This document shows, in pieces, positions 2,204 to 63,759 of a DNA stretch of 64,000 nucleotides. Each line of letters begins with the position of its first letter. Within the stretch, counting starts at the first letter, position 1. The notes below the pieces were generated by a model. The model searched no databases and had not been told where the DNA came from. It saw only the letters and a program-made list of their open reading frames with translations. Made by a program: the position numbers and the translations under genes. The DNA is from Candidatus Levyibacteriota bacterium (lineage in GTDB: Bacteria; Patescibacteriota; Microgenomatia; Levybacterales; UBA12049): positions 463 through 64,462 of the forward strand of contig JBBSGT010000003.1 of NCBI GenBank assembly GCA_038253825.1, given 5' to 3'.

Positions 2204-2240
2204 AAGTAATGATAATTTTTATGAAAAAAACGCTTTATTA

Positions 2241-2248
2241 TGTATAAT
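2241..2248 (+). promoter_or_regulatory. TG-extended -10 element (TGTATAAT) upstream of the GC-rich gene 2263..3744
   Basis: tgTATAAT seen directly in the sequence 15 nt upstream of the ATG at 2263, inside a 60-nt intergenic gap. Confidence 0.3.
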
Positions 2249-2262
2249 AAGCTTAACAATAT

Positions 2263-38002: not shown

Positions 38003-38193
38003 TTAAAAATTTGAGTTTGTTCAATTCTTGCTGGAAAATGAGTACAGATTTAATTTTCGCGATGCAATTGAGAAAAATATAACCTATTTACTCATATCAT
38101 ATCGAAAAGATAGCATGTTGTATCTACATACGTAGTCAATATCCCAGATTTAAAAAACACTTTTTTCGATAAGATGCGATATAATAATTGATA

Positions 38194-39741
38194 ATGTATA
38201 AAAGAATACCGGCATTATTTTACAAGAAGAGCAGGATCATTGCTCTTGTACTCATTGGGATAAATATTATCCTCAACGCTTGGACAGTCTTTCATAAAGA
38301 TATCATCTATAACTCTGACATTGCAAGAGATTTCTTACTTTTTAATGAGATAACACAAAAGAAAATTATTTTAATTGGGCCACGAGCAGATGGCATACAA
38401 GGCTTATTTCATGGTCCTTTATGGCTTTACTTGAATTATCCAGCATATATAATTGGTCATGGAAATCCATTAGTAGTTGGCTGGTTTTGGTTCTTTCTTA
38501 CACTAATTTTTTTACTAGTAAGTTTTATCATTGCAACTAAACTATTTAATAAATCTGTAGGAATCCTCTATGTAACGTTGTTATCTTCAGTAATGATATA
38601 TCATTCCAATGGCCTTTTTAATCCTGATGGAGCAATGTTCTTATTGCCGCTATTTTTGTTTTTCTTTTCATCTTATTATAAATTCAAGAGATTATCATAT
38701 TTAGCAATCAGTTTATTGTTGGTGGGTTTGATGATCCAATTCCAAATGGCAATTGGCATACCCTTTCTTATACTTTCAACGCTACTAACGCTTTATTTGA
38801 TTATTAGAAATAGAAAATACTTCCATACCCTTGCTTTTCTTATAGTACTATTGCCTTTATCTACTTTTATACTCTTTGATTTAAGGCATAACTTTGAACA
38901 ACTACATTCGATAATAAATAGTTTTTCTGGTCATACAAGTGCTCCTCAATTTAGTTTTTATAACAGACTTTCCAATAGAATTGAACTTATGACTTTCCAA
39001 TTATTCTTTTTCCAAGGACAACTGTCTGCATTAAATTTATTACTTTCATACATCATTGCCTTCTTCTTAGGGAAAAGAATTAGCGCAAAAGCTGACCAAT
39101 ATCGTTACTTGTACTTGTTATTTATATATTTTTATCTGGGCTTTTATACTATTTCTCTACTTCAAAATGGTAATCTGCTCTCATTTTTTATATATCCATT
39201 ACTCACATTATTATTTTTATTATTCTCATCAAATTTACTTTATCATGAGAAAAAGTTTTTTATTGCATTGATAATAATAATTCCAATATTGCAATTGATA
39301 AGCAGTATATCCTATATCTCAGAAACAACGAATAATATTAATCGAGTAGATACCTCTTGGCAGTTTCAGCATAACATTGCTTTGAAGATTTTTACTTCAA
39401 ACGATACTAGTTTTGGTTATCTTATCTATGCTCCTGATGTATTTGGTTATAAACAAAAATATGCTTATGAATATACAAAAAGTGAATATCCTAATAAAAA
39501 TGCTACTTTATTCCAAAAACAAAGAATTACCTATGTTGTCGTAGAACCTATACCGTCTAGCCGTACTGATTTGGCTCACGACTATGATAATTGGAAAAAA
39601 GATAAGGTAACCTTCGAGGGAAAACTATTAAGTTCGTATACGTATCCAAACAGTTATAAAATTGAAAAATATCTTCTTACTGGAAAAGAGATTGCTGCAC
39701 CTATAGATCCAGCTTTATTGGATATAATACACTTTAGATAA
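38194..39741 (+). CDS. Polytopic membrane protein, probable GT-C-like glycosyltransferase
   Basis: About 515 aa, 12 or more TM helices plus a C-terminal soluble domain. Followed by a GtrB/ArnC-type GT2. Confidence 0.4.
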   Translation: MYKRIPALFYKKSRIIALVLIGINIILNAWTVFHKDIIYNSDIARDFLLFNEITQKKIILIGPRADGIQGLFHGPLWLYLNYPAYIIGHGNPLVVGWFWFFLTLIFLLVSFIIATKLFNKSVGILYVTLLSSVMIYHSNGLFNPDGAMFLLPLFLFFFSSYYKFKRLSYLAISLLLVGLMIQFQMAIGIPFLILSTLLTLYLIIRNRKYFHTLAFLIVLLPLSTFILFDLRHNFEQLHSIINSFSGHTSAPQFSFYNRLSNRIELMTFQLFFFQGQLSALNLLLSYIIAFFLGKRISAKADQYRYLYLLFIYFYLGFYTISLLQNGNLLSFFIYPLLTLLFLLFSSNLLYHEKKFFIALIIIIPILQLISSISYISETTNNINRVDTSWQFQHNIALKIFTSNDTSFGYLIYAPDVFGYKQKYAYEYTKSEYPNKNATLFQKQRITYVVVEPIPSSRTDLAHDYDNWKKDKVTFEGKLLSSYTYPNSYKIEKYLLTGKEIAAPIDPALLDIIHFR

Positions 39742-43235: not shown

Positions 43236-44117
43236 ATGTTGCTTTCTATTATTCTCTTAAATTTTAATAAATCTCATTTAACAATTGCGTGTATGCAATC
43301 ATTGTATGAACACTTTAGGAATGAATTTAGCGATAATCTATTAGAAATTATTTTGGTAGATAATGCTTCAGGTGATGGATCGGTTCAGGAGTTAAAGAGT
43401 GCGATAAAACAGAACGACTACAAAAATTGTCTGTTAATCGAAAATAAGACCAATGATGGATTTAGTAAAGGTGTTAATAAAGGAGCTGAGGAGGCAAAAG
43501 GGGAATACTATCTCTTTTTAAACAACGACACGATTGTAAAAGATCGGGGAATTTGGGATATGATGCAGTATATGCAGTCTCACAGTGAAGTGTCGATTCT
43601 TGGAGGCAAACTGAGTAATGTAGATGGTTCGGACCAACCATCGGTTGGAAAGTTTTATATGCCGACACAAGTGACACTTCTTATGTTAGGTTTGCAAAAA
43701 TATGACATCATTGATAAAAATCCCGAAAAAATTGCAGAAGTGGATTGGGTTAAAGGGGGGTTACTAATGATCAGAAATGCCGTATTCAAAAAGCTGCATG
43801 GATTTGATGAAAAAATCTTTATGTATACAGAGGATATGGAATTATGTTATCGCGCCAAGCTAAACGGCTACAAAACCTTCTTTTATCCTTCTGTGCATGT
43901 TCTCCATGAAGAAACAGGAAGCTCAAATCGCGCTTTTGCCATTGTAAATATCTATGCAAATCTATTATACTTCTATAAGAAGCACCGCACGCACGGTGAG
44001 TATCTTTATTTACAATCGCTTCTGCGTATAAAAGCAGTTGCATTAATAGGAATTGGACGACTGCTCCGCAATTCCTACTTAGTCCAAACTTATGAAAAAG
44101 CTTTTAAAGTTACTTGA
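43236..44117 (+). CDS. GT2 family glycosyltransferase
   Basis: 'LSIILLNFNKSHLTIACMQSL...ILVDNASGDGS', 'NNDT', 'TEDMELCYRAKLNGY'. Confidence 0.75.
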   Translation: MLLSIILLNFNKSHLTIACMQSLYEHFRNEFSDNLLEIILVDNASGDGSVQELKSAIKQNDYKNCLLIENKTNDGFSKGVNKGAEEAKGEYYLFLNNDTIVKDRGIWDMMQYMQSHSEVSILGGKLSNVDGSDQPSVGKFYMPTQVTLLMLGLQKYDIIDKNPEKIAEVDWVKGGLLMIRNAVFKKLHGFDEKIFMYTEDMELCYRAKLNGYKTFFYPSVHVLHEETGSSNRAFAIVNIYANLLYFYKKHRTHGEYLYLQSLLRIKAVALIGIGRLLRNSYLVQTYEKAFKVT

Positions 44118-47100
44118 TGATAACTTGCTGCGATTTGGAGTAGCATTTGCTATTTTATTTACCGCGCTCTACCCAAAACTCCCAAGCGTCCATGTCCCAC
44201 ACACATGGGTGTATGTCAGATTGGAAGATTTTCTTATTTTATTCTTAGTATTTATTTGCTTAATCCAATTACTCAGAAGAAAAATCGCCTTGCCGAGACC
44301 CGAAGGATACGCGCTTGTGATCTATTGGATTGTCGGGGCGATTTCTCTTGTCTATTGTATAGCTTTCGTCATCCCTGGTTTACCTATTGAATTTTTCCCA
44401 AGTATAGCCTGGCTCGAGTTCTTGCGGAGAATAGAGTATATGATTTTGTTCTTCGTGGCATTTTCTACTGTCCGTAATCAAAGAGATGTGAGGTTTTATC
44501 TCACAACGCTTGCTATTACACTCTCTTTGATTATCTGTTACGGATTCGGACAGAAGTTCTATCCGCTAATTTGGAATTTCTTTCCAGAGTTTTTTAAACA
44601 TCACCAATTTTGTTTCCCGGCTTTCCTAACAGGAAATGAAGAGTTTGCAAAGGGGACGCCTTTATGTCTTGATTCGTTGTCACGTATTAGTTCTACCTTT
44701 GGGGGACATTATGATTTGGCAGCATATTTAGTTCTTGTTATACCTATTTTTATTGCGCTTTTTATTGTTGTCAGACGTTGGTATATCAAGATTCCATTTG
44801 CCATTCTTGTCGTTTTGGGACTAGAATTGCTTAATTTCACATCATCACGAACTTCTTTTGCAGCATATGTTTTGGGTGCTATCAGTATGTTGATTCTTTG
44901 GAAAAAGAAACTATGGATTATTCCTGTTTTGCTTGCTAGTATCGGTATTCTCTTTTTCCTAAGTAATGCTACCTTGCAGCGTTTCGCGAAGACGATTCAA
45001 CCGGTACAGGTTGTTCAAATACAACCGGGTTCTACCACTTCTGATCAGGATATTCAAAAGATTATAAGTACGACACAACAGAAAAATGCCAATAAAAAGC
45101 CTCAGACACCCGCCCCTGGTACTGTGACGATTGGAAATGACAGTAGTTTAGCAAGCGGCAGTAGTCAAGTTCTTACTGCTGAAGATTTAGCGTCATTACA
45201 GGCAAATGGCAGCATCTCAACTGTGTCCGGTTCATTCTTGTTGAAAAAAGCATATGCGCTTGATATTTCTTCTACTACGCGTTTTCAAGCAGAATGGCCA
45301 CGAGACTGGAATGCCTTCTTGTACAGTCCAGTTTTCGGAACAGGCTATTCTTCTTTAACGCTTGCATCCGATAATGATTATCTCCGCGCCTTGGGAGAAA
45401 CAGGGCTTGCAGGATTCCTAGCATTCCTTTTTATATTCGTAATATTTGGCATCTTTCTCAAAGAGGTTGCACATTCTGTTGAAGATCGAGTTACGCAAGC
45501 CTTCTTGTTTGGACTGGCTGGAGGCGTTATCGGTCTTTTAATTAATGCAGTATTGATTGATGTCTTTGAAGCCTCAAAAGTTGCGGAACCACTGTGGATT
45601 CTTTTGGGTATTGCTTTGGGAGCAGCGAAACTTTATCACAAAAAAGCAATTAATTATAAAAAAGAGCTTCTCATATTTTTAACCTCCAATACCTTGATTA
45701 TCATATATTTATTTGTTCTTGTATTTACCATTTTTGGTTCGTCAATCAATAACTTCTTCGTAGCTGATGACTATAGTTGGCTAAAATGGGCTGCAACGGC
45801 GGTACCGTCGGATCTTATGAAATACTTTGTATATTTGCCGGACTTTTTCTATCGACCTCTGGATAAAATCATTGTTTATTTCCTCTATACGATTTTCTCC
45901 TTCCTTCCACAGGGATACCACATTTTCATTTTGTTGCTTCACTTTGTGACAAGTGTTGGTGTCTTTTTCTTAGCTAAAAAAATATCGCGAAGTAAATTAA
46001 TCGGTACTCTGACAGCTGTCTTATTTGTACTCCTTCCTGCACATACGGAAAATGTATTTTGGTTCTCAACAATTTCTGTTGAGCTGGGGGCATTATTTAT
46101 TATCTTTATGATGCTTACTTACATTAAATTCAGAGAAAATAATTCAATAGTCGGCTATATCCTGGCAATTCTTTTTGCGGCACTTGCATTCGTCACTTAT
46201 GAAATTGCCGTAATCACCCCATTAATACTCATGACACTCGATATCTTTATTCTCAAACCAAAAAGAAATATTCGCATTGTATACTCCTACATTCCTTTTG
46301 TGATTTTACTCGTTTTATATTTCGTTATGCGATTTGTTTCGCATGCTTTTTCAGGTGGTGGCGACTACAGTTATCATCTCAGTCGATTTATCCCAAACAT
46401 GATCGGAAACTTCTTGGGCTATACAGGTATGTATCTTGGTGGACCATCCTTTTTGTCTTTCTATAATACAGTTCGTGATAGTTTACGCTCAGACTGGATT
46501 TTCGTTTCCTTTGTTATTCTTGTCATTATTGGATTACTCATGTGGGCTATCTATACATACCGAAGGTCAGCAAAGGCAATGATCCATAATAAGGATATAC
46601 ACATTATTTTATTTTGCATAGTCTTTGCATTTATTTCCTTATTGCCGTTCTTACCACTGGGTAATATTGCACCGAGGTATTTGTATTTAGCTTCTGCTGG
46701 ATACACATTGGCGTTGGTTTCTATTTTAAAATTACTCTTCATACATTGGTTAAAACAACCAAAATATGTGACGAGTTTGTTGATTGTTGTTACCATTGGT
46801 TTGTCGTTTATCTCTATTGTGAATTTGCGTCAAGAACAAAACAAGTGGGAAAATGCCGGTTACATAACGCAAAACACCCTCCTCTTTTTTAGAAAAAATT
46901 ACGCAGGTTTAGGACAAGAGACTAATCTCTATTTTGTTAATACACCTGTGCAGGAAAACGGTGTGTGGGTATTTCCTGTTGGGCTTAATGACGGGTTGTG
47001 GATTATTTATCGAGATAAATTACCCCATGTTGTACAAGTGAATTCTCTTGAGGATGCGATGACGGCTGCAAATAGTGGTAATACAGATAATAACTATATC

Positions 47101-47142
47101 TTTGATTTTGATAAAAATGGGAGTATTCAGCAGGTTAGGTAA
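44092..47142 (+). CDS. 1016-aa fusion membrane protein: N-terminal O-antigen ligase/polymerase-like (Wzy_C) domain plus C-terminal GT-C-like polytopic domain
   Basis: The N-terminal half has a TM bundle with 'LNFTSSRTSFAAYVLG' and 'YSPVFGTGYSSLTLASDNDYLRALGETGLAGFLAF', the characteristic O-antigen-ligase block. A low-complexity Thr/Ser/Gln linker follows at about aa 300-370. The C-terminal half (from about aa 540) is a second TM bundle with an 'ADDYSW' acidic loop. Confidence 0.55.
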   Translation: MKKLLKLLDDNLLRFGVAFAILFTALYPKLPSVHVPHTWVYVRLEDFLILFLVFICLIQLLRRKIALPRPEGYALVIYWIVGAISLVYCIAFVIPGLPIEFFPSIAWLEFLRRIEYMILFFVAFSTVRNQRDVRFYLTTLAITLSLIICYGFGQKFYPLIWNFFPEFFKHHQFCFPAFLTGNEEFAKGTPLCLDSLSRISSTFGGHYDLAAYLVLVIPIFIALFIVVRRWYIKIPFAILVVLGLELLNFTSSRTSFAAYVLGAISMLILWKKKLWIIPVLLASIGILFFLSNATLQRFAKTIQPVQVVQIQPGSTTSDQDIQKIISTTQQKNANKKPQTPAPGTVTIGNDSSLASGSSQVLTAEDLASLQANGSISTVSGSFLLKKAYALDISSTTRFQAEWPRDWNAFLYSPVFGTGYSSLTLASDNDYLRALGETGLAGFLAFLFIFVIFGIFLKEVAHSVEDRVTQAFLFGLAGGVIGLLINAVLIDVFEASKVAEPLWILLGIALGAAKLYHKKAINYKKELLIFLTSNTLIIIYLFVLVFTIFGSSINNFFVADDYSWLKWAATAVPSDLMKYFVYLPDFFYRPLDKIIVYFLYTIFSFLPQGYHIFILLLHFVTSVGVFFLAKKISRSKLIGTLTAVLFVLLPAHTENVFWFSTISVELGALFIIFMMLTYIKFRENNSIVGYILAILFAALAFVTYEIAVITPLILMTLDIFILKPKRNIRIVYSYIPFVILLVLYFVMRFVSHAFSGGGDYSYHLSRFIPNMIGNFLGYTGMYLGGPSFLSFYNTVRDSLRSDWIFVSFVILVIIGLLMWAIYTYRRSAKAMIHNKDIHIILFCIVFAFISLLPFLPLGNIAPRYLYLASAGYTLALVSILKLLFIHWLKQPKYVTSLLIVVTIGLSFISIVNLRQEQNKWENAGYITQNTLLFFRKNYAGLGQETNLYFVNTPVQENGVWVFPVGLNDGLWIIYRDKLPHVVQVNSLEDAMTAANSGNTDNNYIFDFDKNGSIQQVR

Positions 47143-52379: not shown

Positions 52380-52877
52380 GTGTCTTTTCAGAAAGTTCTT
52401 GTCCGAGCGGGAATTGCACTAGGTGTAGTTCTCTCAGCAGTCTTACTGTTGTTTTTCATCGCCCCTCAAGGTGAGGCTGTAACTGTGAGCAATCAGCAAT
52501 ACAGTATTAATGTCTCAGCAACGAGTGGATGGCAAGGAGCAATACTCATTCCTGCGGGGTTCCGTTATTCAATTTCTGCACCACAAAGTGGTCAGTATTG
52601 GACGGTCGATTACAGATCCCTCGGGAAGACAGCAGCATTCGGGTATCCTGAAGGACAGGTTTGGGGAGGTAATCCTTCATGCAAGTACGCACAGGGGGAT
52701 CCCTATGCGATGTTGTTGGTCAAGTTCAACGGTGATGTACAACGCTACGATGATTTCGATGGTTTGTCCTCATCGTTTGACCGAGTCGTGTCGTTCCGCA
52801 TCAACGATGCCAACAACTGTCTGGAAGACAACGCAGGAGCACTTCCTGTCACCGTTACGGTAACCCCAGCTGGTTAA
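52380..52877 (+). CDS. Secreted small protein (Sec signal peptide), possible PA-IL/LecA-like lectin fold (tentative)
   Basis: GTG start preceded by GGAGGT. Signal peptide 'MSFQKVLVRAGIALGVVLSAVLLLFFIAPQGEA'. 165 aa, GC-richer. The mature part shows loose similarity in pattern to the LecA galactophilic lectin (SGW..G, C..A.G...LLVKFNG, FRINDANN...GALPVTVTV). Confidence 0.45.
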   Translation: MSFQKVLVRAGIALGVVLSAVLLLFFIAPQGEAVTVSNQQYSINVSATSGWQGAILIPAGFRYSISAPQSGQYWTVDYRSLGKTAAFGYPEGQVWGGNPSCKYAQGDPYAMLLVKFNGDVQRYDDFDGLSSSFDRVVSFRINDANNCLEDNAGALPVTVTVTPAG

Positions 52878-53030: not shown

Positions 53031-53669
53031 TTAATGGAATCCGAACATGCCGATTAAGGCTTTGAGGAAAAGAAGAAGAAGCGTTAAGATACTTGTCGCA
53101 TTACTAGTGGATCCACTACTAGGAGTAAGCGAGAGATTTGGAATTATAGGGGAAGGTGATGCTGCAATTGACGCCCCAGGTGAAATACATGAAGCCCCCA
53201 GACATTGTGGACTCGGCACAACAGTCACGGTAGGAGATGGTGATGGTACTTTTGTGGCAATTGGAGCAGGTGAAGTAGCAGGCGCAGGACTTGTCGTCGT
53301 ATTTGTCGTATTGGTAGTCGTGTTTGTCGCAGTTGCTGAACAAATATCACCGACATAGTTTGGATCTAAATAGGTTGTTGCGCCACTTGTATGAGAAGAC
53401 GGTACGACAGACGTAACATCACTTCCACATGGATGCCCCTGATGAGGTGAGCCTCGACTTCCTTTTTCGTAGATTTTATTACTTAGAATATAGAGACAAC
53501 GGGTGTCAGATGAGACTTGCGCCTTTGAAAGGCAGGTTTGTCCGTTGGCATGATATTGCACCACATAGAAGATGACAATATTAACTAAAAAGAGTAAAAC
53601 CCAAATATGAAGACCGTATTCAAATAATACTTTTTTCAATGATACTTTTTTTGCTTTTATTTTTGTCAT
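53031..53669 (-). CDS. Membrane-anchored surface protein, paralog A: N-terminal TM, conserved Cys/His module, C-terminal Thr/Ser/Pro-rich tail
   Basis: 212 aa. The first 130 aa are nearly collinear with the N-terminus of 55144..57015 (FEYGLH.W...CLYIL..K.YEKG.R..PHQGHPCG.DVTSV.P.SHT...YL.PNY.GD.CS). The tail is low-complexity TTTNTTNTTTSPAPATSPAP. Confidence 0.6.
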   Translation of the reverse strand: MTKIKAKKVSLKKVLFEYGLHIWVLLFLVNIVIFYVVQYHANGQTCLSKAQVSSDTRCLYILSNKIYEKGSRGSPHQGHPCGSDVTSVVPSSHTSGATTYLDPNYVGDICSATATNTTTNTTNTTTSPAPATSPAPIATKVPSPSPTVTVVPSPQCLGASCISPGASIAASPSPIIPNLSLTPSSGSTSNATSILTLLLLFLKALIGMFGFH

Positions 53670-53748: not shown

Positions 53749-55047
53749 TCATATCGAAAATTCCTCAGAATGTATACTGCGATCCTTTACTTTTAATTTT
53801 TTCAACTGGTTTTTCATACTTTTCATCATTGGTGGCGGGCCACAAAGAAAGAAATCATACTTTGTCATATCCCCGACAGTCTGAGCTATTGTATCTGCTG
53901 AAAGCCGTCCCTGGGTTTTGGTGTAAAAAGGAATTATTTGTAAGTTCGGATTAACCTGATTAAATTGTACCAAATTTTCCAGATATGCTGCATCATCTTG
54001 GGTTCTGACTGAATAATAAAGGAAGATATGATATTGTGGATCAGTAAGATTTTGCGCCATGCTCAAAAATGGCACGATGCCAATACCTCCTGCTATCCAA
54101 ACCTGGTTAAGATTTTTGTATAACGCATAGTTAAATCTTCCAAACCCTCCTTCAATGACAGCGATATCTCCCACCTGAATATTTGCGAGTGTTTTAGTGT
54201 AATCACCTTCAGCTTTTGCGGAGATCGTTATACTTCCATCAGGAGCGACCGAGCTAACAGAAAAAGGGTGCGTTTCATTGGATACGGATTGGGATTTGAA
54301 GAAAAGATAAATAAATTGTCCTGAAATAACTTTTATGGCTTTATTAAGAGGCGTCATTGCTATTTCTGTGACATTTGATTTCACCAGCGTAACATTACTC
54401 ACGCTATATTTGGTTCTCCGGACTAAAAATCTTCCACCAATGGTTCTATAGAGATAGGCAACAGTGCCAATGCCGACAATGAACAACATATAGTCTTGAA
54501 GTGGTTTAAATCGAGCAATATCACTGGATACATAAAATCCATGGATCGAACCGATGAGAAATACTGCACCCAAAAATTTATGGGTAAAGCGCCAAATGTG
54601 ATAAGGAATCTTGATAAAAAAAGTCAAAACCAATAGTGAAATCATTAACAGTAATCCCGTTAAGCCAAAATTTATTGACCAATCCGGCCCAGGTAACAAA
54701 AATAACGCGGCAGTATTCCATGAAATAGTAATGCGGCTAAAAGCTAAGAGGAGAGGATGGATAAGCAGGAAAATAAATGAGATACCACCAAGCAGGTGAT
54801 GGGCAATATACACTTTGTTCATACCACCGAAAAAATCTTCAAAAACTTCCATGCGAGAACTCAGGACAAGCGAGAGAGAAAACATTGTTATTCCAACAAG
54901 TCCTGCCATTTCCCCAAAACTGATAAATGTGCCATACGCACTATAAAAACGATCTGATAAAGGAAGCAAGGCAAAATACCAGAACAGGAGAGGAGAAAAA
55001 GCTATCAATAGAAGAATTGGCCAGCCCAGTTTTCGTTTTAGTAACAT
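53749..55047 (-). CDS. NOX/FRE-type transmembrane flavocytochrome (ferric-reductase-like heme domain fused to FAD/NAD(P)H-binding FNR domain)
   Basis: Two bis-His pairs in TM helices (HHLLGGISFIFLLIHP and HKFLGAVFLIGSIHG), FAD motif HPFSVSS, NAD(P)H motif WIAGGIGIVPF and C-terminal CGPPPM. 432 aa, similar in size to compact bacterial NOX proteins. Confidence 0.75.
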   Translation of the reverse strand: MLLKRKLGWPILLLIAFSPLLFWYFALLPLSDRFYSAYGTFISFGEMAGLVGITMFSLSLVLSSRMEVFEDFFGGMNKVYIAHHLLGGISFIFLLIHPLLLAFSRITISWNTAALFLLPGPDWSINFGLTGLLLMISLLVLTFFIKIPYHIWRFTHKFLGAVFLIGSIHGFYVSSDIARFKPLQDYMLFIVGIGTVAYLYRTIGGRFLVRRTKYSVSNVTLVKSNVTEIAMTPLNKAIKVISGQFIYLFFKSQSVSNETHPFSVSSVAPDGSITISAKAEGDYTKTLANIQVGDIAVIEGGFGRFNYALYKNLNQVWIAGGIGIVPFLSMAQNLTDPQYHIFLYYSVRTQDDAAYLENLVQFNQVNPNLQIIPFYTKTQGRLSADTIAQTVGDMTKYDFFLCGPPPMMKSMKNQLKKLKVKDRSIHSEEFSI

Positions 55048-55143: not shown

Positions 55144-57015
55144 ATGGCTAAAATAAGCAAACATCACAAAAAAAAGCTTACTAAAATCTTTTTTGAGTAT
55201 GGACTACATTTATGGATCGTAGTATTTATCATGAATGTGGCACTGTTTTATGCTGTAAATTTTTACAGTCTAGGAAAAACTTGTATTACTCCGCAACAAG
55301 TCCAATCCGATAATCGATGCCTTTACATCTTAAATGGAAAAGTCTATGAAAAAGGTACGCGTAATGATCCACATCAAGGTCATCCCTGCGGAACTGATGT
55401 CACGTCTGTGCTTCCTCCTTCACATACTAATAATCCGGCTATGTATCTCTTACCCAACTACATTGGAGATGTTTGTTCTGTTCAGCCAACGACTCCGCCA
55501 CCACCCCAACCGACTGCCAAACCAACCAACACTCCCCCCCCTCCTCCGACCCAAGTCCCGGCTCCAACTCGTCAGGCCCCGACGATTGCTATCCCGACTC
55601 CCACTTTTACTCCTACGCCTACGCCACGGCCCCAAGTTGTAGGAGTCACACCAGTATCGACTATAAAGGTTCCTACGCCCACAGTTGCTATTGTCGTAAC
55701 CCGGGCAATTACGCAACCATATACAGCTATTCCAACGAATGCACCATCTCCAACGGTCGCACCATTACTGGGGCCAGGAATCACATTTTCGTTTTCTTTG
55801 CCTGCTATCGGAATCGGCCCAGGTAAGACAACTCCTCTCCATACGACAAGAGCTGTTAATCTTAGTATCTATGATGCTGCAGTTAAGCTCTCGAATTTAA
55901 AATTTTTGCCAACATATACTGCAAGTGCCAGTGCGAACTATGATGCCAATTCCACAAGCGCTACCTATACGCAGTTTGTGGTACAAAGTGCTGATTTGGG
56001 AGCCAATGTTCCGGCTGGTTCCTACCATGTAGCATTTAAAACAAATCAGACGCCGCTTACCCTTATCAAACAAAATAAAACAGATGTACAAGGGACGCTC
56101 TTTCACGTAACTCCTGGTACCATTGCCGCCGAAAAACCCCAAGCAGCAGATATTTTGGTGGGGGATTTAAATGGGGATGATTCTATTACTATTCAGGATT
56201 ATAGTATATTTGTTGATTGCTTCGGTGATAAGTCTTCATCCTCCTCATGCCATGCGCCTAGTGCTGCAGACCTGAATGATGACGGATCAGTGGATGGAGT
56301 AGATTACAATCTTTTGCTCAAAAGTATCAGTATGGCATCTGGTGCCGTCGCGCAAGTACCAACACCAACTGTTCGGACACCGACACCACAGTTAAAGAGC
56401 CAACTCATCAGTACGCCCTCAGCGTCTTCAAGTGGGCTTTCTAAGACGTTACCATCGCCTGCTCCAATGAAGCAATTTGTGACACATCGGTCAGCACCGC
56501 CATCACTTTCTCCGACGACAACTCCAAATAAATCGCTTGTTGCTGATGCAACTATGCTTACATTGAGTAAAGTGCTTTCATACATAGCATTTGTAGTCTT
56601 GTTCGGTGTTGCGGTATTAGGAGCTTACAAAAGTCGGTTATTGAACTCATTCTTCCACCGGGGAGGAGATGCAAAACCTGCTGCACCCCAACCTCAGATG
56701 ACCGCACCAGCAGCACCTACGCAACAACCGCAGCCAGTTCCCGTTGAACAATCACCCGTAGTTCAGGCTCCGCCAGCAGAGAAAAAACAAATTTCAAAAG
56801 TATATTATATTACGAGTGGCACGACAACTCCGGTAAATGGACGCACGATACTGACACTTACTGATGATCAAGGAGCACATGTTGGTTACACGTTACAAAC
56901 TTCCCCGCAAGATGGTTATTATTCGGTAAGTGGTTTTGAGGAAGAAATAGATGGAGTTCCCAGTATTACTATTTTGACACTTACACCGGCTCTAAAACCT
57001 GGTACAAATTTATAA
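55144..57015 (+). CDS. Multidomain surface protein, paralog B: N-terminal TM plus Cys/His module, Pro-rich linkers, dockerin-like double Ca-binding loop, second TM, C-terminal domain
   Basis: The N-terminal 130 aa are paralogous to 53031..53669. 'TPPPPQPTAKPTNTPPPPPTQVPAPT' linkers. 'DLNGDDSITIQDY' and 'DLNDDGSVDGVDYNLLLKSI' fit the dockerin DxNxDGxxxxxD loop-helix repeat. TM 'YIAFVVLFGVAVLGAY'. A Pro/Gln-rich spacer, then a 100-aa C-terminal domain. Confidence 0.6.
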   Translation: MAKISKHHKKKLTKIFFEYGLHLWIVVFIMNVALFYAVNFYSLGKTCITPQQVQSDNRCLYILNGKVYEKGTRNDPHQGHPCGTDVTSVLPPSHTNNPAMYLLPNYIGDVCSVQPTTPPPPQPTAKPTNTPPPPPTQVPAPTRQAPTIAIPTPTFTPTPTPRPQVVGVTPVSTIKVPTPTVAIVVTRAITQPYTAIPTNAPSPTVAPLLGPGITFSFSLPAIGIGPGKTTPLHTTRAVNLSIYDAAVKLSNLKFLPTYTASASANYDANSTSATYTQFVVQSADLGANVPAGSYHVAFKTNQTPLTLIKQNKTDVQGTLFHVTPGTIAAEKPQAADILVGDLNGDDSITIQDYSIFVDCFGDKSSSSSCHAPSAADLNDDGSVDGVDYNLLLKSISMASGAVAQVPTPTVRTPTPQLKSQLISTPSASSSGLSKTLPSPAPMKQFVTHRSAPPSLSPTTTPNKSLVADATMLTLSKVLSYIAFVVLFGVAVLGAYKSRLLNSFFHRGGDAKPAAPQPQMTAPAAPTQQPQPVPVEQSPVVQAPPAEKKQISKVYYITSGTTTPVNGRTILTLTDDQGAHVGYTLQTSPQDGYYSVSGFEEEIDGVPSITILTLTPALKPGTNL

Positions 57016-57043: not shown

Positions 57044-57682
57044 TTGTACGATATTTATATGACTAGCTTAGCGCTCCTTTTTGGCCTCATTTGTCTTGTC
57101 CAATTAGTAATGATAATTTTATGGCGCAAACCTAAGAGACTTTTCAAAAACCAAAAGGCCAAGAAATCCGAAATAAGCCATGCCCACATCTTTTTATTTA
57201 TTGGCATGATTTTGTTATACATTCTCTTTTTTATTCAACTCTTTGATTATCACAAGCCACATCCGTTAGTCGACGCGCCTTATGTTCCTACCACCAACTA
57301 TCCTCCGCCTGCTCATAATGTTTTTTCACAACTTGGTGAAAGACAAACAGGTCCGATTGATGATCTGTATTTCCTTTATCTTTCTTCTGATAAATCTCAA
57401 GGGACAGTCACTCAGGTTGCGTGGGGATTGCGACAGGAATATTGTAAAAAACTCTGCATTATTAATCTTTATGATAATAAAACTGCCTTTGAGCGAGATT
57501 TAGAACGAGTGACGATAACAGATCAAGCAAAGATGAAAGAATGGAATAAACAAAACTATGTTTTTGTTGCTGATCATTATCTTGGTTATCTTGATGCGGT
57601 TCAAGATGCGTCTTTTAGCTATTATCCTTTCCATGACAGTTACTACAAACACGCCAAAGCAGGCACACTTACTGATTACTAA
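57044..57682 (+). CDS. Membrane-anchored hypothetical protein (2 TM plus extracytoplasmic domain)
   Basis: 212 aa, two N-terminal hydrophobic helices. No recognisable motif. Confidence 0.4.
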   Translation: MYDIYMTSLALLFGLICLVQLVMIILWRKPKRLFKNQKAKKSEISHAHIFLFIGMILLYILFFIQLFDYHKPHPLVDAPYVPTTNYPPPAHNVFSQLGERQTGPIDDLYFLYLSSDKSQGTVTQVAWGLRQEYCKKLCIINLYDNKTAFERDLERVTITDQAKMKEWNKQNYVFVADHYLGYLDAVQDASFSYYPFHDSYYKHAKAGTLTDY

Positions 57683-57715: not shown

Positions 57716-58846
57716 ATGAGAATTGGGATTGATGCAAGGCTGTGGCATGAAACCGGTGTCGGTAGATATATCCGTAATTTAGTATGGCAATTAGAACAGT
57801 TTGACAAAAAAAACGATTATGTTTTATTTGTGCAAAAAGGTTTTACCAAACAAGATTTAGGTATTACCAACGAAAGATTTAAACTCATCGAGACTGACAT
57901 CCGCTGGCATACGGTTGATGAACAATTCCTTTTTCATAAAGTGTTAGAAAACGAACTTTTGGATCTTGTTCATTTTCCCTACTTTTCTGTACCAATTCTT
58001 TACAACAAGCCGTTTGTTATCACAATTCATGATTTGATCATAAATCATTTTCCCACCGGCAAAGCTTCCACATTACCCCTGCCGGTATATTATGCAAAAC
58101 GTTTTGCATACCAATATATTCTCAAACAAGCTGCTAAAAAATCCCGAAAAGTGATCGCAGTTTCAGAAGAAACCAAAAAAGAAATTGTGAAGCATCTGAA
58201 CGTTTTACCGAACAAAGTTGCTGTAACCTATGAGGGTGTTGACGATGAATTAAGTAAAAAGCTAAAAGTGAAAAGTGAAAAGTTACCGTTTGTTTTCAAA
58301 AACCAAAAATATTTTCTCTATGTTGGCAACGCTTATCCACACAAAAATATAGAACGTTTAGTGGAAGCGTTTCGATTGGTCGCAAAAGAATATATTGACG
58401 TGAAGCTTTTGCTCGTGGGGAAAAGCAATTATTTTTATGATCGATTGAAAGAAAAAGTAACGCAAATGGGATTAGAAAAAAGCGTACTTTTCTTGGGTAG
58501 GGTGACTGATGAGGAATTAATTGGATTGTATCACCACGCCGAAGCATTAGTTTTCCCATCCCTCATGGAAGGGTTTGGACTGCCGGGTCTGGAGGCGATG
58601 CAAAATGACTGTTTGGTACTTGCTTCAGACATACCGGTTTTTAAAGAAATTTATCAAGATGCTGCTCTTTACTTTAACCCTCGTGAAATTACCTCAATTC
58701 ATGCTACAATACGGCTAGTTCTTACAGAGAAAAAGAGTTTTTCTCATTACATCGAAAAAGGGGAAAAACAAACTGAACCTTTTTCATGGGAGAAAATGGC
58801 ACAAGAAACTTTACATATTTATGAAAGTAGCGTTGGTTTACGATAG
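57716..58846 (+). CDS. GT4 family glycosyltransferase
   Basis: 'SLMEGFGLPGLEAMQNDCLVLASDIPVFKEIYQDAALYF'. Confidence 0.8.
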   Translation: MRIGIDARLWHETGVGRYIRNLVWQLEQFDKKNDYVLFVQKGFTKQDLGITNERFKLIETDIRWHTVDEQFLFHKVLENELLDLVHFPYFSVPILYNKPFVITIHDLIINHFPTGKASTLPLPVYYAKRFAYQYILKQAAKKSRKVIAVSEETKKEIVKHLNVLPNKVAVTYEGVDDELSKKLKVKSEKLPFVFKNQKYFLYVGNAYPHKNIERLVEAFRLVAKEYIDVKLLLVGKSNYFYDRLKEKVTQMGLEKSVLFLGRVTDEELIGLYHHAEALVFPSLMEGFGLPGLEAMQNDCLVLASDIPVFKEIYQDAALYFNPREITSIHATIRLVLTEKKSFSHYIEKGEKQTEPFSWEKMAQETLHIYESSVGLR

Positions 58847-59903
58847 AATTAATAAATGGGGAGGCGCGGAACGTGTCCTTCTCGCTCTTCACAAGTTATT
58901 TCCAAAGGCACCGGTATTCACCTCTGTTTATTACCCGCAGCATGCTGCGTGGGCAAAGGATATTACCATAAAGCCTTCTTTTTTGCAGCGATTTCCTCAT
59001 GTTGTCGGCAATCATGAATTATATCCGTTTCTGATGCCGTTAGCATTTGAACGGTTTTCCTTCGCAGATTACGATTTGGTGATTTCGCTAACCAGTGAAG
59101 CAGCAAAAGGTATCGTTACCACACCCGGTACCAAACACATTTGTTATTGTCTTACACCCACTCGCTATTTATGGAGTGGATATGAGGAGTATTTTCAAGA
59201 TCAATCGTTTCGAACTTTTACTTCGCCCATAGTTTCTTACTTACGAAAGTGGGATAAAATTGCAGCAAGCAGGCCAGATGTTTATCTCGCAATTTCTCAG
59301 GAAGTGAAAAAGCGTATCAAAGACTACTATAGAAGAGAATCAATGATTGTCTATCCGCCGGTGGATCTTATTAAGAATAAAGAATTAAGAATAAAGAATA
59401 AAGAGGATTATTTCCTGATTGTTTCCCGGTTATCTAAGTTTACCAAATACAAGAGAATCGATTTAGCAGTTCAAGCATGTAATGAATTGAAGTTGCCGTT
59501 AAAGATTATTGGCGAAGGAAGTTGGAAGAAAGAATTACAAAAAATGGCGGGTCCCACCATCACATTCCTCGATAATGTGGATGATAAACAACTAAAAAAA
59601 TATTATTCTCAGTGTCGTGCCTTGATTTTTCCGGCAATGGAAGATTTCGGTCTCACTGTCGTTGAGGCACAAGGATTTGGTAAGCCTGTTATTGCCTATC
59701 GCGGTGGTGGTGCACTAGAAACGATCAAAGAAGGCAAAACAGGTTTATTTTTTGATAGGCAAACCAAAGATTCTCTCAAAGCTGCGCTTGTTCAGTTCAA
59801 TAAAATGAAATTTGATCCAGCGTTAGCGATCAAAAATGCACAACAATTTGATCGGGCACATTTTGAGAAAAACTTTTTAAAACTTGTGCATAAGGTCATT
59901 TAA
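58821..59903 (+). CDS. GT4 family glycosyltransferase
   Basis: 'MKVALVYDRINKWGGAERV' start and 'AMEDFGLTVVEAQGFGKPVIAYRGGGALETIKEGKTGLFF'. 26-nt overlap with the upstream gene. Confidence 0.75.
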   Translation: MKVALVYDRINKWGGAERVLLALHKLFPKAPVFTSVYYPQHAAWAKDITIKPSFLQRFPHVVGNHELYPFLMPLAFERFSFADYDLVISLTSEAAKGIVTTPGTKHICYCLTPTRYLWSGYEEYFQDQSFRTFTSPIVSYLRKWDKIAASRPDVYLAISQEVKKRIKDYYRRESMIVYPPVDLIKNKELRIKNKEDYFLIVSRLSKFTKYKRIDLAVQACNELKLPLKIIGEGSWKKELQKMAGPTITFLDNVDDKQLKKYYSQCRALIFPAMEDFGLTVVEAQGFGKPVIAYRGGGALETIKEGKTGLFFDRQTKDSLKAALVQFNKMKFDPALAIKNAQQFDRAHFEKNFLKLVHKVI

Positions 59904-59923
59904 TATTATAATAGTAGAGAAGT

Positions 59924-61009
59924 ATGAATATTGTTTTATTTGCAGGTGGTGTTGGCAGCAGGTTGTGGCCACTTTCCCGAAAGAATGCTCCAAAACAGTT
60001 TGGCAAAATCATCGCTGACCGCTCGATGCTCCAAATTGCTGTCCATAAATTATTCCCGGAATTTAAATGGGAAGATGTTTTTATCTCAACCGGAAATCAG
60101 TACGCCACACATATCACCGATCAATTGCCATTACTTCCTGAAAAAAATATTATCGTTGAGCCTGAAATGAGGGATGTCGGTCCTGCAGTAGGTTTGGTAA
60201 TCGCGCAATTTGTCAAAACAAATCCTGACGAACCAATTGTACTTTTGTGGGGAAGTGATCATCTGGTTAAAAAAGAAGCAATTTTTCGAAAGATGCTCCG
60301 AGCAGCTGAAAAGCTGATTCTAGAAAATCCAAATAAAATTGTTTTTATTGGTCAGAAACCACGGTTTGCAAATCAGAATTTAGGTTATATTGCCTACGGC
60401 AAGGAAGTCGCAAACGTTGGCGGTTTTTCCGTTAATGAATTTACTCATTTTAAATATCGGCCAGATATGGAGACAGCAAAAGAGTATGCGCAAGATGGCA
60501 AACATGCCTGGAATTTAGGATACTTCGCAACCACACCACGTTTCTTATGGAAATTGTTTGAAGAATTTTCTCCTGAAATGTACAAAAAATTAAAGAAAAT
60601 TCATGATGCATATGGAACTGCTGAATATGAAGCTGTTCTTGGGGAAGTATATCCTACGCTCGAAAAAATTTCTTTTGACGATGCAATTCTTGAGAAGATG
60701 GATCCTAATGATGGTCAAGTTATTTCAGCTGATATTGGTTGGAGTGATATTGGAGCATGGGAAGCTTTGAAGGAAGCCTTGAGTGACAAAGTTGAAGAAA
60801 ACGTAACAAAAGGAAAAATTTTACTAGAAGGCTGCAGTGATTCAATTTTACACAACGAAACAAAACAATTAATTGTGGGTATTGACCTGCATGAAATGGT
60901 TATTGTCAGTATGGAGGATGTTATCTTAGTATGTCCAAAGGATTCGGTACCAAAAATCAAAACATTAGTAAAAAGTCTCGATGGTACTTCTTACGAACAT
61001 TTAGTGTAA
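59924..61009 (+). CDS. manC: Mannose-1-phosphate guanylyltransferase (GDP-mannose pyrophosphorylase), nucleotidyltransferase domain only
   Basis: 'MNIVLFAGGVGSRLWPLSRKNAPKQF' is the characteristic ManC/CpsB N-terminus. 361 aa without a PMI domain. Confidence 0.8.
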   Translation: MNIVLFAGGVGSRLWPLSRKNAPKQFGKIIADRSMLQIAVHKLFPEFKWEDVFISTGNQYATHITDQLPLLPEKNIIVEPEMRDVGPAVGLVIAQFVKTNPDEPIVLLWGSDHLVKKEAIFRKMLRAAEKLILENPNKIVFIGQKPRFANQNLGYIAYGKEVANVGGFSVNEFTHFKYRPDMETAKEYAQDGKHAWNLGYFATTPRFLWKLFEEFSPEMYKKLKKIHDAYGTAEYEAVLGEVYPTLEKISFDDAILEKMDPNDGQVISADIGWSDIGAWEALKEALSDKVEENVTKGKILLEGCSDSILHNETKQLIVGIDLHEMVIVSMEDVILVCPKDSVPKIKTLVKSLDGTSYEHLV

Positions 61010-61011
61010 AC

Positions 61012-61680
61012 ATGGCTTACACACAGATCCATAAAAGTTTAACTTTTTCCGTAACAAAGCGATTAATCGATATTGTATCTTCTTCAGTTCTTCTTATTCT
61101 GTTTTCACCAATTATCTTTGTTGTTGTTATGGCAATCAAACTTGATTCAGTCGGGCCTATTTTAGCTGATACCCCAAAGCGAGTAGGGGAAAAAAATAAA
61201 TACTTTTATCCGTATAAATTCCGTTCAATGATTGTTAATGCGTATTATCTATTAAAAACAGATCCCAAATTTAAAGCGGCATATGAAGAACAGCAAAAAG
61301 GCGGTAATTATAAAGTCAAGAATGATCCGCGAATTACACGCGTCGGAAAGTTTATTCGGAAGTATTCACTTGATGAAATCCCTCAGCTTGTAAATGTCTT
61401 CAAAGGAGAAATGAGTCTCGTGGGACCTCGACCGTATTATCCAGAAGAACTAGAAAAACAACAACAACACTACCCCCAAACGAAAGATCTTGTGCAGGAA
61501 GTGCTTTCCGTAAAGCCAGGGATTACTGGGTATTGGCAGGTCAGTGGAAGAAGTGAAGTGAAGTTCGATAAACGAATTCAAATGGATGCTGATTACGCTA
61601 TGAAAAATTCAATCACGCTGGATATCTTAATCATTTTAAGGACTCCTTGGGCTATGATATCAGGAAAAGGAGCATTGTAA
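61012..61680 (+). CDS. Monotopic initiating phosphoglycosyltransferase (bacterial sugar transferase, PglC/WbaP C-terminal-domain type)
   Basis: Single N-terminal re-entrant helix 'LIDIVSSSVLLILFSPIIFVVVMAIKLDS' with 'PYKFRSM' and 'DEIPQLVNVFKGEMSLVGPRP' motifs. ATG at 61012, directly after the manC stop. Confidence 0.8.
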   Translation: MAYTQIHKSLTFSVTKRLIDIVSSSVLLILFSPIIFVVVMAIKLDSVGPILADTPKRVGEKNKYFYPYKFRSMIVNAYYLLKTDPKFKAAYEEQQKGGNYKVKNDPRITRVGKFIRKYSLDEIPQLVNVFKGEMSLVGPRPYYPEELEKQQQHYPQTKDLVQEVLSVKPGITGYWQVSGRSEVKFDKRIQMDADYAMKNSITLDILIILRTPWAMISGKGAL

Positions 61681-61752
61681 TATTAAGTGTATCTCGAGTT
61701 TTTTGTCAAGTTGACAAGTGATAAATGGCTTGGGTATGATATATGATGTACA

Positions 61753-63759
61753 ATGTCAGGATTTAACAAGATTGAGTTTAAAAATCAAAATCAGGTATCT
61801 CAGAATAATGATGTATCCAGGACAAGAATCAGGGCAAAGAGTACACCTGACTTTGCAAGAAGTAAAAATTCATCAACAGTCCTTATGTCACAACGCAAGA
61901 AAAAAAATACAGTCAAAGTTCCACGGAAGCTTTATATCGCTTTGGGAATTGTCGTACTGCTTGCCATCTTGATAGCAATTCCAGCATACGCGACGTATAA
62001 ATCAGGACTGAAAACATATCGTGAAGCCCAGCTCATTGGTAAAGCGCTTAAGAAACAAAATGTCGCCTTGGTTTCCAGTGAAATTACCAAAACACAAAAA
62101 GACCTCGCCGATACACAAAGGAATTTCCACTTCTTACTGCCACTAAAAATTGTCCCAATTGTTGCATGGTATTACAACGATGCCGATCATTTGTTAAATG
62201 CATCAGCAGACGGACTTGCTAGTGCTCAAACCGTTGCGAAATCGCTGACTCCATATGCGGATATCTTAGGCCTCAAGGGAGTAAATAATGGTGCTACAGG
62301 ATCGACCGCGGATCGTATTAAAACAGTGGTTTTAAGTATGGGCAAGATTACGCCCCAGATTGATACCATTGAAGCTTCTCTCAACAAAATGAAAACGGAA
62401 GTTGATAAAATTGATCCAAATCGATATCCATCTTTTATTTTTGGGAAGAAAATCAAAACTGAACTAACGAGTTTACATACGCTTACCGATCAAAGTGCCA
62501 TTGCCGTTACTAATGCAAAACCGCTTATTAAAACACTTCCTTCCTTACTCGGTGCAACAGAAAAAAAGAAATATCTGATGATTTTCCAAAATGATAAAGA
62601 ACTTCGTCCAACTGGAGGATTTATCACAGCTTATGCTATCTTTACGATTGATCAAGGGCATATCGCATTTGAAAAATCCGATGATATTTATAAGCTAGAT
62701 AATTCTATTCCTAACAAAGAAGCTGCTCCTGCGCCGATTAGGAAATACTTCCCGACGGTTCCAGAATTTAACTTGCGTGACAGTAATATATCTCCTGACT
62801 TTATGGTCTCAATGAAAACATTTCGGTCAATGTACGATCAAGCAGGTTTAAGAGAAGATGATATTTCTGGCATAATCGGAATTGATACCAATGTACTTGT
62901 ATCTACAATTAAAATTCTTGATGATCAGGTACAAGCAGGTGGTGAAACGTTTACAACGAAAAATGATCCACGATGTGATTGTCCTCAAGTTATCTATGCT
63001 CTTGAAAACTCGATTTCACGCCCAGTTAATTATGTCAAATCAGCACGGAAGAGCTTGATTGGTGATTTGATCTCGGCAATTATGGTGAAAGCACTTTCTT
63101 CTTCACCAAAGCTTTATTGGGGACCGCTTTTCCAATCGATCATTGCTCAGACAAACCAAAAGCATGTTATGTTTGATCTGTATGATGATCAAGCACAGCA
63201 AGGTATTGAAGCACTCAATGCCGCCGGGCAAATACAACCCTTTAAGGGTGACTATCTTCACATCAATGAAGCAAATTTCTCAGGAGCAAAAGTAAATATC
63301 TTTATGCAAGAGTCTGTTGATAATAGTTACAATATTGCAAGTGATGGTACGATTACCAAGACTGTAACTATTCATTACAAAAATCCATATCCACCATCTG
63401 ATTGTAGTTTGGCAGATGGAGGATTATGTTTGAACGCGTTGTATCGTGATTGGGTTCGTCTCTATGTACCACAGGGAAGTGTCTTAACCAGCAATCATGG
63501 ATCTCAAGTGAAGATGACAACCTATGACGAACTTGGGAAAACAGTATTTGACGGTTTCATCACAGTCAGAACACGTGGTGTAGCTACACTCACAGTAAAT
63601 TACACCTTACCATTTAAGTTGAAATCAGGTTCACCTCTTCCAGTTATGATCCAGAAGCAACCTGGTGCGACAAACAACGATTATCAAATGATGACCAACG
63701 GAAAGTCTGTTGACGACTTCAAACTCACCGCTGATAAGCAAACAGAAGTTAAATTCTAA
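61753..63759 (+). CDS. Large extracytoplasmic protein with single N-terminal TM anchor, DUF4012-like (tentative)
   Basis: 668 aa. TM 'LYIALGIVVLLAILIAI'. 'ELRPTGGFITAYAI' motif recalls the RGTGGF block of DUF4012 proteins. Confidence 0.4.
   Translation: MSGFNKIEFKNQNQVSQNNDVSRTRIRAKSTPDFARSKNSSTVLMSQRKKKNTVKVPRKLYIALGIVVLLAILIAIPAYATYKSGLKTYREAQLIGKALKKQNVALVSSEITKTQKDLADTQRNFHFLLPLKIVPIVAWYYNDADHLLNASADGLASAQTVAKSLTPYADILGLKGVNNGATGSTADRIKTVVLSMGKITPQIDTIEASLNKMKTEVDKIDPNRYPSFIFGKKIKTELTSLHTLTDQSAIAVTNAKPLIKTLPSLLGATEKKKYLMIFQNDKELRPTGGFITAYAIFTIDQGHIAFEKSDDIYKLDNSIPNKEAAPAPIRKYFPTVPEFNLRDSNISPDFMVSMKTFRSMYDQAGLREDDISGIIGIDTNVLVSTIKILDDQVQAGGETFTTKNDPRCDCPQVIYALENSISRPVNYVKSARKSLIGDLISAIMVKALSSSPKLYWGPLFQSIIAQTNQKHVMFDLYDDQAQQGIEALNAAGQIQPFKGDYLHINEANFSGAKVNIFMQESVDNSYNIASDGTITKTVTIHYKNPYPPSDCSLADGGLCLNALYRDWVRLYVPQGSVLTSNHGSQVKMTTYDELGKTVFDGFITVRTRGVATLTVNYTLPFKLKSGSPLPVMIQKQPGATNNDYQMMTNGKSVDDFKLTADKQTEVKF

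Follow-up and report, generated by a model that had tools for sequence, protein, structure and literature searches.

The gene at positions 55144..57015 (+ strand) of a 64-kb stretch of DNA from a Candidatus Levyibacteriota bacterium (hereafter, the window) encodes a two-pass membrane protein of 623 residues, which carries a type-I-like dockerin between its two membrane anchors and a cytochrome-b5-like domain just outside the first anchor. Candidatus Levyibacteriota lies within the Microgenomates group of the Patescibacteria, or Candidate Phyla Radiation (CPR), whose members are ultra-small bacteria. The dockerin itself is already annotated: an NCBI entry from a Candidatus Levyibacteriota metagenome-assembled genome, identical to the 623-residue protein, is named "dockerin type I domain-containing protein". 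What is new is its placement: the dockerin is internal and forms the tip of a stalk anchored at both ends, in an extracellular b5-like protein that is paired with a NOX homologue. On balance, we think it probable that the gene product is the surface subunit of a CPR-specific trans-membrane electron-transfer module and that its dockerin tethers a partner.

A type-I-like dockerin in a two-pass membrane protein

The calcium-loop pattern D-x-[ND]-x-[DN]-[GDN]-x5-D, with ligands expected at loop positions 1, 3, 5, and 12, matches the protein exactly twice. Loop 1 comprises residues 341-352 (DLNGDDSITIQD; 56164-56199, + strand), and loop 2 comprises residues 376-387 (DLNDDGSVDGVD; 56269-56304, + strand). 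When the protein is shuffled 20000 times, no shuffle contains two or more such loops. The Pfam profile Dockerin_1 (PF00404) aligns by its positions 2-56 of 57 with residues 340-395, at an E-value of 1.2e-7 and a score of 32.3 bits against a gathering score of 22.9. The phmmer matches in the PDB, namely 2yik (6e-5), 2y3n_B (5e-4), 6kg9 (2e-3), and 5nrk_B (3e-3), are all type I dockerins, and both dockerin repeats are covered in the alignments to PDB type I dockerins. In the AlphaFold model, built with 19 homologues, the dockerin has a predicted local distance difference test (pLDDT) score of 85-93 and two helices, at residues 350-357 and 385-398, one after each loop. The original prediction had read a dockerin type-I arrangement, two tandem 12-residue calcium loops each followed by a helix, from two peptides that we locate at residues 340-361 and 375-395; the loop pattern, the profile match, and the modelled structure all bear this out.

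Conservation points in the same direction. In 14 homologues, the most distant of which has 33% identity, residues G340, D341, D352, Y353, D376, D384, D387, and Y388 do not vary. L392 is invariant as well, and together with Y353 and Y388 it shows that the helix surfaces are conserved beyond the calcium ligands. The cysteine pair C359/C369 of the dockerin is also invariant in the 14 homologues. Judged from its sequence, the module at residues 340-395 (56161..56328, + strand) is a genuine type-I-like dockerin with two calcium loops, which is predicted to bind Ca2+ and may bind a cohesin. An EF-hand signalling protein was considered and rejected, the sole sub-threshold alternative for the dockerin region being FG-GAP_3 (E=0.084).

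Three homologues (P0009, P0011, and P0015) have a four-residue insertion in the first calcium loop (GDIAPSPNGDG.ID..DY), in which the position-1 ligand likely becomes Ser.

Topology and domain layout

The open reading frame (ORF) is a real gene, and the layout of its product is kept in the 14 homologues of the family alignment. The residue map is derived from this alignment, hydropathy, and two AlphaFold models; all features lie on the + strand. At the N-terminus, hydropathy and charge count define a Lys-rich cytoplasmic tail (residues 1-16; six Lys or Arg and no Asp or Glu) and the first transmembrane (TM) helix, TM1 (approximately residues 16-41; 55144..55266 with the tail), and AlphaFold places a helix at residues 5-44 that spans TM1. 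The extracellular b5-like domain (residues 44-112; 55273..55479) is followed by a Pro/Thr-rich stalk (stalk 1, residues 113-230; 55480..55833; 27% Pro and 21% Thr), the sequence and length of which vary among homologues. Directly N-terminal of the dockerin is a β-rich domain (residues 231-335; 55834..56148), which is recognized by its AlphaFold strands (pLDDT ~80-90) and has no Pfam match.

On the other side of the dockerin, a Ser/Pro/Thr-rich stalk (stalk 2, residues 396-472; 56329..56559), assigned from its composition and a pLDDT below 50, leads to TM2 (approximately residues 474-497; 56563..56634). TM2 has a Kyte-Doolittle mean of 2.3, is contained in an AlphaFold helix at residues 469-504, and is followed by basic residues (KSRLL..HR). 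A Pro/Ala/Gln linker (residues 498-547) connects it to a cytoplasmic C-terminal five-stranded barrel, which is OB-fold-like (residues 548-623; 56785..57012; pLDDT ~90). When the model of residues 225-623 is used as a Foldseek query, the best 50 PDB matches are all OB folds (RPA32/14, SSB, and N-domains of aminoacyl-tRNA synthetases, with E from 3e-3), and among these matches there are no dockerins.

By the positive-inside rule, both termini would be cytoplasmic and the segment between TM1 and TM2 would lie outside the cell. The outside location is consistent with the six conserved cysteines and the Ca-dependent module of this segment. The dockerin is the apex of a two-legged stalk, internal between two membrane anchors. 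Composition and hydropathy agree with the earlier placement of the dockerin between a Pro-rich stalk (residues 113-230) and a second TM helix (~474-497); the protein had been called bitopic, and with two TM helices it is instead a two-pass protein.

A cytoplasmic OB-fold at the end of a surface protein might have nucleic acid, an oligosaccharide, or the cytoplasmic domain of the SpNOX-type reductase as its ligand.

A cytochrome-b5-like domain is the conserved core

Residues 44-112, which start approximately three residues after TM1, are more conserved than any other part of the protein. C47, C59, H77, C82, G83, H94, and C111 are invariant or nearly so, and H80 (of the HPCG motif) is ~90% conserved. 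In particular, H77 and H94 are invariant in 26 sequences. The original prediction left out this conserved core, a cytochrome-b5-like ectodomain that is genetically tied to an SpNOX-type reductase.

When searched alone, residues 44-112 match Pfam Cyt-b5 (PF00173) with E=0.013 over profile positions 7-73 of 74. The same profile is matched by 7 of 21 family members (best E 0.0064) and is the only one that recurs among them. For residues 1-119, AlphaFold gives a model with a pLDDT of ~90 over residues 50-110, and the best 50 Foldseek matches of this model in the PDB all belong to the b5 family, including cytochrome b5, flavocytochrome b2, the sulfite oxidase heme domain, and archaeal cytb5 domains. 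The Foldseek probabilities are 0.84-1.0 (0.51 for one chain), the E-values start from 4e-3, and the target TM-scores are 0.44-0.61 for stand-alone b5 chains. With hhalign, the family aligns to a mini-alignment of four b5 sequences with P=0.004 over 70 columns; H77 falls on the position of b5 His39, and H94 falls one residue off His63, with a six-residue deletion between them. Plain pairwise alignment to b5 is weak, with 40 of 1000 shuffles equally good. We have good confidence in the b5-like fold, as modelled, and the conserved histidines make it likely that the domain binds heme in a bis-His manner through H77 or H80 plus H94.

Linkage to an SpNOX-type reductase

The neighboring gene at 53749..55047 (- strand) encodes an SpNOX-type flavocytochrome with a ferric-reductase TM domain, an FAD domain, and an NAD(P)H domain. 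Its product matches Pfam Ferric_reduct (PF01794, ferric-reductase-like), FAD_binding_8, and NAD_binding_1, and matches the SpNOX structures 8qq7 and 8qt6 over its full length with E ~1e-32. The bis-His pairs H84..H97 and H156..H169 are present, and the HPFS, GIGIVP, and CGP motifs are intact. The product has the features by which SpNOX-type enzymes are recognized, from the six-TM ferric-reductase domain and the His pairs to the FAD, NAD(P)H, and CGP motifs.

The NOX-like gene adjoins b5-like genes in eight of eight loci with readable flanks. These loci are the window, four loci of dockerin-protein homologues (L002-L005), and three loci retrieved through the b5-like domain alone (L006, L007, and L009), for which a contig scan with one peptide pattern returned six loci. 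L002-L005 are contigs of four other organisms, one labelled Saccharimonadales, and encode homologues 30-50% identical to the window protein; L006, L007, and L009 show b5-NOX or b5-NOX-b5 arrangements. The wider surroundings otherwise differ among the eight loci. Chance gene adjacency is rejected, because the genes are adjacent in all eight loci and the surroundings are otherwise unrelated.

In the window, as in L007 and L009, the NOX-like gene has b5-like genes on both sides. The second one (53031..53669, - strand) encodes a short b5-like paralogue of 212 residues, with a TM helix, the b5-like domain (N-domain hidden Markov model, E=2.8e-38), a Pro/Thr/Ser linker, and a C-terminal TM helix; it carries no dockerin. 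Downstream of the dockerin gene, gene conservation defines a further member of the module at 57044..57682 (+ strand), which encodes a protein of ~206 residues with two TM helices and an ectodomain of ~135 residues. In this protein, C129, C133, H173, and the motif FSYYPF.D.YY are invariant, and no Pfam profile matches it. The gene lies directly downstream of the long dockerin-bearing form in five of five loci and is absent beside short forms. The protein may be a partner of the dockerin, of TM2, or of the OB-fold part.

Two or three b5-like genes surround the NOX-like gene in L003 (3685-4713 and 4713-5411, both - strand) and L004 (6608-7975, + strand), and some of them encode TM-b5-beta-dockerin forms without a second TM helix. 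The L006-L009 contigs are labelled 'uncultured Gammaproteobacteria', and the short homologue P0068 is labelled Mycobacteriales; these are probably binning or labelling errors.

The dockerin is a recurrent accessory cassette

A profile search of 1.84 billion representative proteins yields 177 clusters at E<=1e-3, with the b5-like domain nearly always at residues 35-120. In a census of 168 members, 46 (27%) carry a dockerin in any architecture, and 73% are without it. The commonest architecture is TM-b5-TM (50 of 168 members); TM-b5 accounts for 36 members, and the exact architecture of the window protein for 12. The OB-fold-like barrel is also found in family members without dockerin, some of which keep the b5-like domain together with the OB-fold. 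Because b5-like members, including some with the OB-fold, exist without a dockerin, the dockerin is an accessory cassette, recurrent and usually accompanied by the preceding β domain, and not part of the family core. The β-rich domain accompanies the dockerin in other proteins too. The two-Cys dockerin subtype is also C-terminal on many secreted proteins, among them CAP, VWA, CBM4_9, subtilase, and GH5 proteins. One protein, P0031, is membrane-anchored and combines a cohesin and a β domain with the same two-Cys dockerin subtype.

Another protein, P0133, gave 14 partial matches and was rejected as a spurious translation of repetitive DNA. In L003, the gene at 1749-3191 encodes a CAP-domain protein that carries the same two-Cys dockerin subtype.

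Proposed function and alternative explanations

In the electron-transfer module that we favor, the SpNOX-type enzyme would take electrons from NAD(P)H in the cytoplasm and pass them by way of FAD and two b hemes to the outer side of the membrane, as expected from family knowledge and the intact motifs. The b5-like domain, held at the membrane approximately three residues past TM1, would accept these electrons through its putative bis-His heme and would then pass them to a further acceptor. From the b5-like domain, the polypeptide would run out on the Pro/Thr stalk to the β domain and the dockerin at the apex, and back on stalk 2 to TM2 and the cytoplasmic OB-fold. The most likely job of the dockerin, as an optional accessory, would be either to hold a second protein at the redox module or to secure the module within the envelope. 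Candidates for the second protein are a cohesin-type module on a scaffold at the surface, a redox enzyme, and a component of the host cell. In a more specific form of this proposal, the dockerin would be a coupling device that recruits a cohesin-bearing electron acceptor, either a surface oxidoreductase or a host-envelope component, onto the NOX-driven b5 conduit; we regard this form as distinctly unlikely.

A cohesin was sought as the docking partner, since the original prediction suggested that the protein docks a cohesin-like partner. Pfam Cohesin (PF00963) has no match in any window ORF of at least 150 residues, and a jackhmmer search seeded with the cohesin of P0031 has no match in the window or in any of 10 related loci. 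When homologues of the P0031 cohesin were sought, just two short unnamed proteins came up. The cohesin negative is weak, because only 64 kb of the genome was searched.

Several observations weigh against the electron-transfer proposal. To our knowledge, CPR bacteria are usually without heme synthesis. Gene adjacency is no proof of physical electron transfer, and in the window the NOX-like gene is transcribed divergently from the dockerin gene, so the two do not form one operon. With no cohesin found in the window or in the flanks of the 10 related loci, the docking partner is hypothetical. For the b5-like domain, the Cyt-b5 score of 15.9 bits is below the gathering score of 23.7, the family profile has no match at E<=10 among all PDB sequences, and hhalign gives no alignment to a single bovine b5 sequence. 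In addition, ~6-9 residues of the b5 heme-pocket helix region are missing, and heme binding is therefore not assured. As the domain fails the Pfam threshold and yet shows the fold, it is best called b5-like and not a member of PF00173.

The alternative that survives best keeps the redox role of the b5-like and NOX-like proteins and makes the dockerin independent of cohesin. The dockerin would then be a Ca2+-stabilized structural knot, or would self-associate or bind glycans, and would in this way stiffen the two-legged stalk or position it in the envelope. The failure to find a cohesin in the window and the 10 related loci agrees with this explanation, as do the many genomes that, according to Peer et al. 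2009, reportedly have dockerins but no cohesins. The invariant Cys pair and the tightly coupled β domain in front of the dockerin suggest a rigid structural unit. Wang et al. 2023 report an essential dockerin-domain protein, SEML1_0315, from the cultivated Saccharibacterium Southlakia epibionticum and speculate that it targets glycans (PMC10633639), which would suit a glycan-binding module. Against it, the helix surfaces are conserved beyond the calcium ligands (Y353, Y388, and L392), P0031 combines the same dockerin subtype with a cohesin, and the cohesin search covered only 64 kb of the genome. We consider this explanation unlikely.

A cellulosome-style role is quite unlikely. In this case, the protein would be mainly a membrane anchor, the dockerin would bind a cohesin on a scaffoldin or enzyme to assemble a surface complex, and the rest would serve as stalk and anchor. 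In favor of such a role, the dockerin is genuine, and its subtype occurs both at the C-terminus of many secreted proteins and on the TM-anchored, cohesin-plus-dockerin protein P0031. However, the most conserved part of the protein is the b5-like domain and not the dockerin, which 73% of the family do without, and the linkage to the NOX-like gene is left unexplained. No cohesin was found in the window, which contains no glycoside hydrolases and has a glycan-synthesis cluster instead. A cellulosome component in the strict sense is rejected, as the protein has no carbohydrate-active enzyme domain and no cohesin is found in the window.

CPR bacteria are usually without heme synthesis and yet encode heme proteins, and this, together with the b5-like fold, the conserved histidines, and the ferric-reductase-type neighbor, would suit a heme-scavenging system. 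In such a system, the CPR cell would be auxotrophic for heme and would capture it from outside by means of the b5-like ectodomain, the NOX-like protein would reduce the heme iron for release or import, and the dockerin would hold the receptor on a host or substrate surface. Although MAPR/cytb5M relatives bind heme tightly (10.1101/2021.11.17.468889), this is very improbable, since no transporter, be it an ABC system or another permease for heme, forms a conserved part of the module (window and L002-L005), bis-His b5 folds are typically electron carriers, and SpNOX-type enzymes reduce cytochromes directly (PMC11564096).

Genomic surroundings

Apart from the module of four genes, nearly all of the window is taken up by a glycan-assembly cluster (225-52000 and 57716-63759). 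The cluster contains at least 12 GT2 and at least 8 GT4 glycosyltransferases, at least four PMT/PMT_2-type membrane mannosyltransferase-like genes, a Wzx-like flippase (7834-9294), a Wzy_C protein of 1016 residues (44092-47142), Bac_transf (60931-61680), and DUF4012 (61753-63759), as well as epimerases, a DegT aminotransferase, and hexapeptide acyltransferases. It is tempting to speculate that the Pro/Thr stalks of the dockerin protein could be O-glycosylation targets of the PMT-like enzymes.

Eight large ORFs of the cluster (347-769 residues) have no Pfam match at E<=1e-4: 989-2203, 18610-19863, 21729-23720 (- strand), 30182-31828, 32460-34769, 34729-35772, 35769-37793, and 38188-39741. They are probably uncharacterized membrane glycosyltransferases or polymerases. 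Just beyond the short b5-like paralogue, an ORF of 165 residues (52380-52877, + strand) has an N-terminal signal anchor and a small Cys-containing β-rich domain, and has no Pfam match.

A search against Rfam gave no matches, and promoter-like sites show no excess over chance. Nine terminator-like sites were found against a shuffle mean of 3.8 (standard deviation 1.9), and none of them is at the ends of the gene at 55144-57015.

Significance

The locus supplies a concrete and clonable candidate acceptor, a b5-like ectodomain of 70 residues encoded beside its reductase. The presence of a dockerin on about a quarter of the family would link surface docking to redox chemistry in host-contact-dependent organisms. 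If the dockerin were a coupling device for an electron acceptor, a fermentative CPR episymbiont could dispose of NAD(P)H electrons extracellularly, the physiological protein acceptor long sought for bacterial NOX homologues would be identified, and the system would be the first in which cohesin-dockerin docking serves electron transfer rather than polysaccharide degradation. If the dockerin is merely structural, the result is a modest annotation refinement.

Comparison with known systems

The dockerin resembles type I dockerins (PF00404; PDB 2yik, 2y3n_B, 5nrk_B, and 1ohz_B) in its duplicated segment of ~22 residues, each copy with a calcium loop D-x-N-x-D-G-x5-D and a helix, in its extracellular location, and in its score over the Pfam threshold. 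It differs from cellulosomal type I dockerins in several respects. It is internal, between two membrane anchors, and not C-terminal; no carbohydrate-active enzyme is attached to it; and its host is a CPR bacterium without a cellulosome. It also has the invariant Cys pair C359/C369, and its putative recognition positions are asymmetric between the two repeats. The original prediction called the layout unusual for a membrane protein outside cellulosomal organisms. This was overstated, as non-cellulosomal dockerins are known, and dockerins outside cellulosomal organisms were reportedly surveyed by Peer et al. in FEMS Microbiol Lett in 2009; the internal position between two membrane anchors is unusual nonetheless.

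X-module-dockerin dyads occur with type II and type III dockerins, for example in CipA XDoc. The protein described here is similar in that a β-sandwich-like domain stands directly before the dockerin and the two move together as a cassette. However, the β domain gave no match to X-modules in sequence or fold, and the dockerin best matches type I.

The b5-like domain shares with classical cytochrome b5 and the flavocytochrome b2 heme domain (PF00173) the fold, as judged by Foldseek, the pattern GKVY..(P)H..G.DVT....H, and two conserved histidines at or near the axial-ligand positions. In contrast to classical b5, its His-to-His spacing is ~7-10 residues shorter, and it has four conserved cysteines that probably form disulfides. 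It is anchored at its N-terminus and lies outside the cytoplasm, whereas classical b5 is a cytosolic protein with a C-terminal tail anchor.

The closest description of the gene pair is that of Tamarit et al. 2021, who reported CPR-only operons of pFre with cytb5-like TM proteins, gave their function as unknown, and noted no such colocalization outside CPR bacteria (10.1101/2021.11.17.468889). Two of the proteins, CBLA and CBLB, were described as 'atypical cytb5-like' TM proteins with barely detectable homology (10.1101/2021.11.17.468889). By this description, the pFre, cytb5MY, and CBLA/CBLB operons resemble our loci: they come from CPR bacteria and have a PF01794 gene beside one or more TM-anchored, barely detectable b5-like proteins, an arrangement that is present in eight of our eight loci. 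The b5-like protein of the window adds to it the β domain, the dockerin, the second TM helix, and the OB-fold, none of which is mentioned in the paper. In particular, the word 'dockerin' is absent from the text (10.1101/2021.11.17.468889), and a search of the supplements for CBLA, CBLB, and dockerin found nothing. A cytb5MY gene together with a two-component system is the proposed ancestral state of these operons (10.1101/2021.11.17.468889); within 10 kb, the window locus has no PF00173-positive (cytb5MY) gene, sensor kinase, or response regulator, and L002 has one Trans_reg_C gene nearby. Because the b5-like family escapes Pfam, Pfam-based counts of the pFre/b5 association are probably underestimates.

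SpNOX, the NOX homologue of Streptococcus pneumoniae (8qq7 and 8qt6), is a full-length homologue of the product of the neighboring gene. Its outer heme is highly exposed, the enzyme reduces cytochrome c directly when kept anaerobic, and Dubach et al. 2024 suggest that a protein acceptor for it may exist (PMC11564096). SpNOX differs from the system described here in that it has no known protein acceptor, and no b5-like neighbor is reported outside CPR bacteria. MsrQ-MsrP, in which MsrQ passes electrons to a periplasmic protein partner, provides a working analogy for the proposed transfer from the NOX-like to the b5-like protein. However, MsrQ is without an FAD/NAD(P)H domain and is partnered by a molybdoenzyme.

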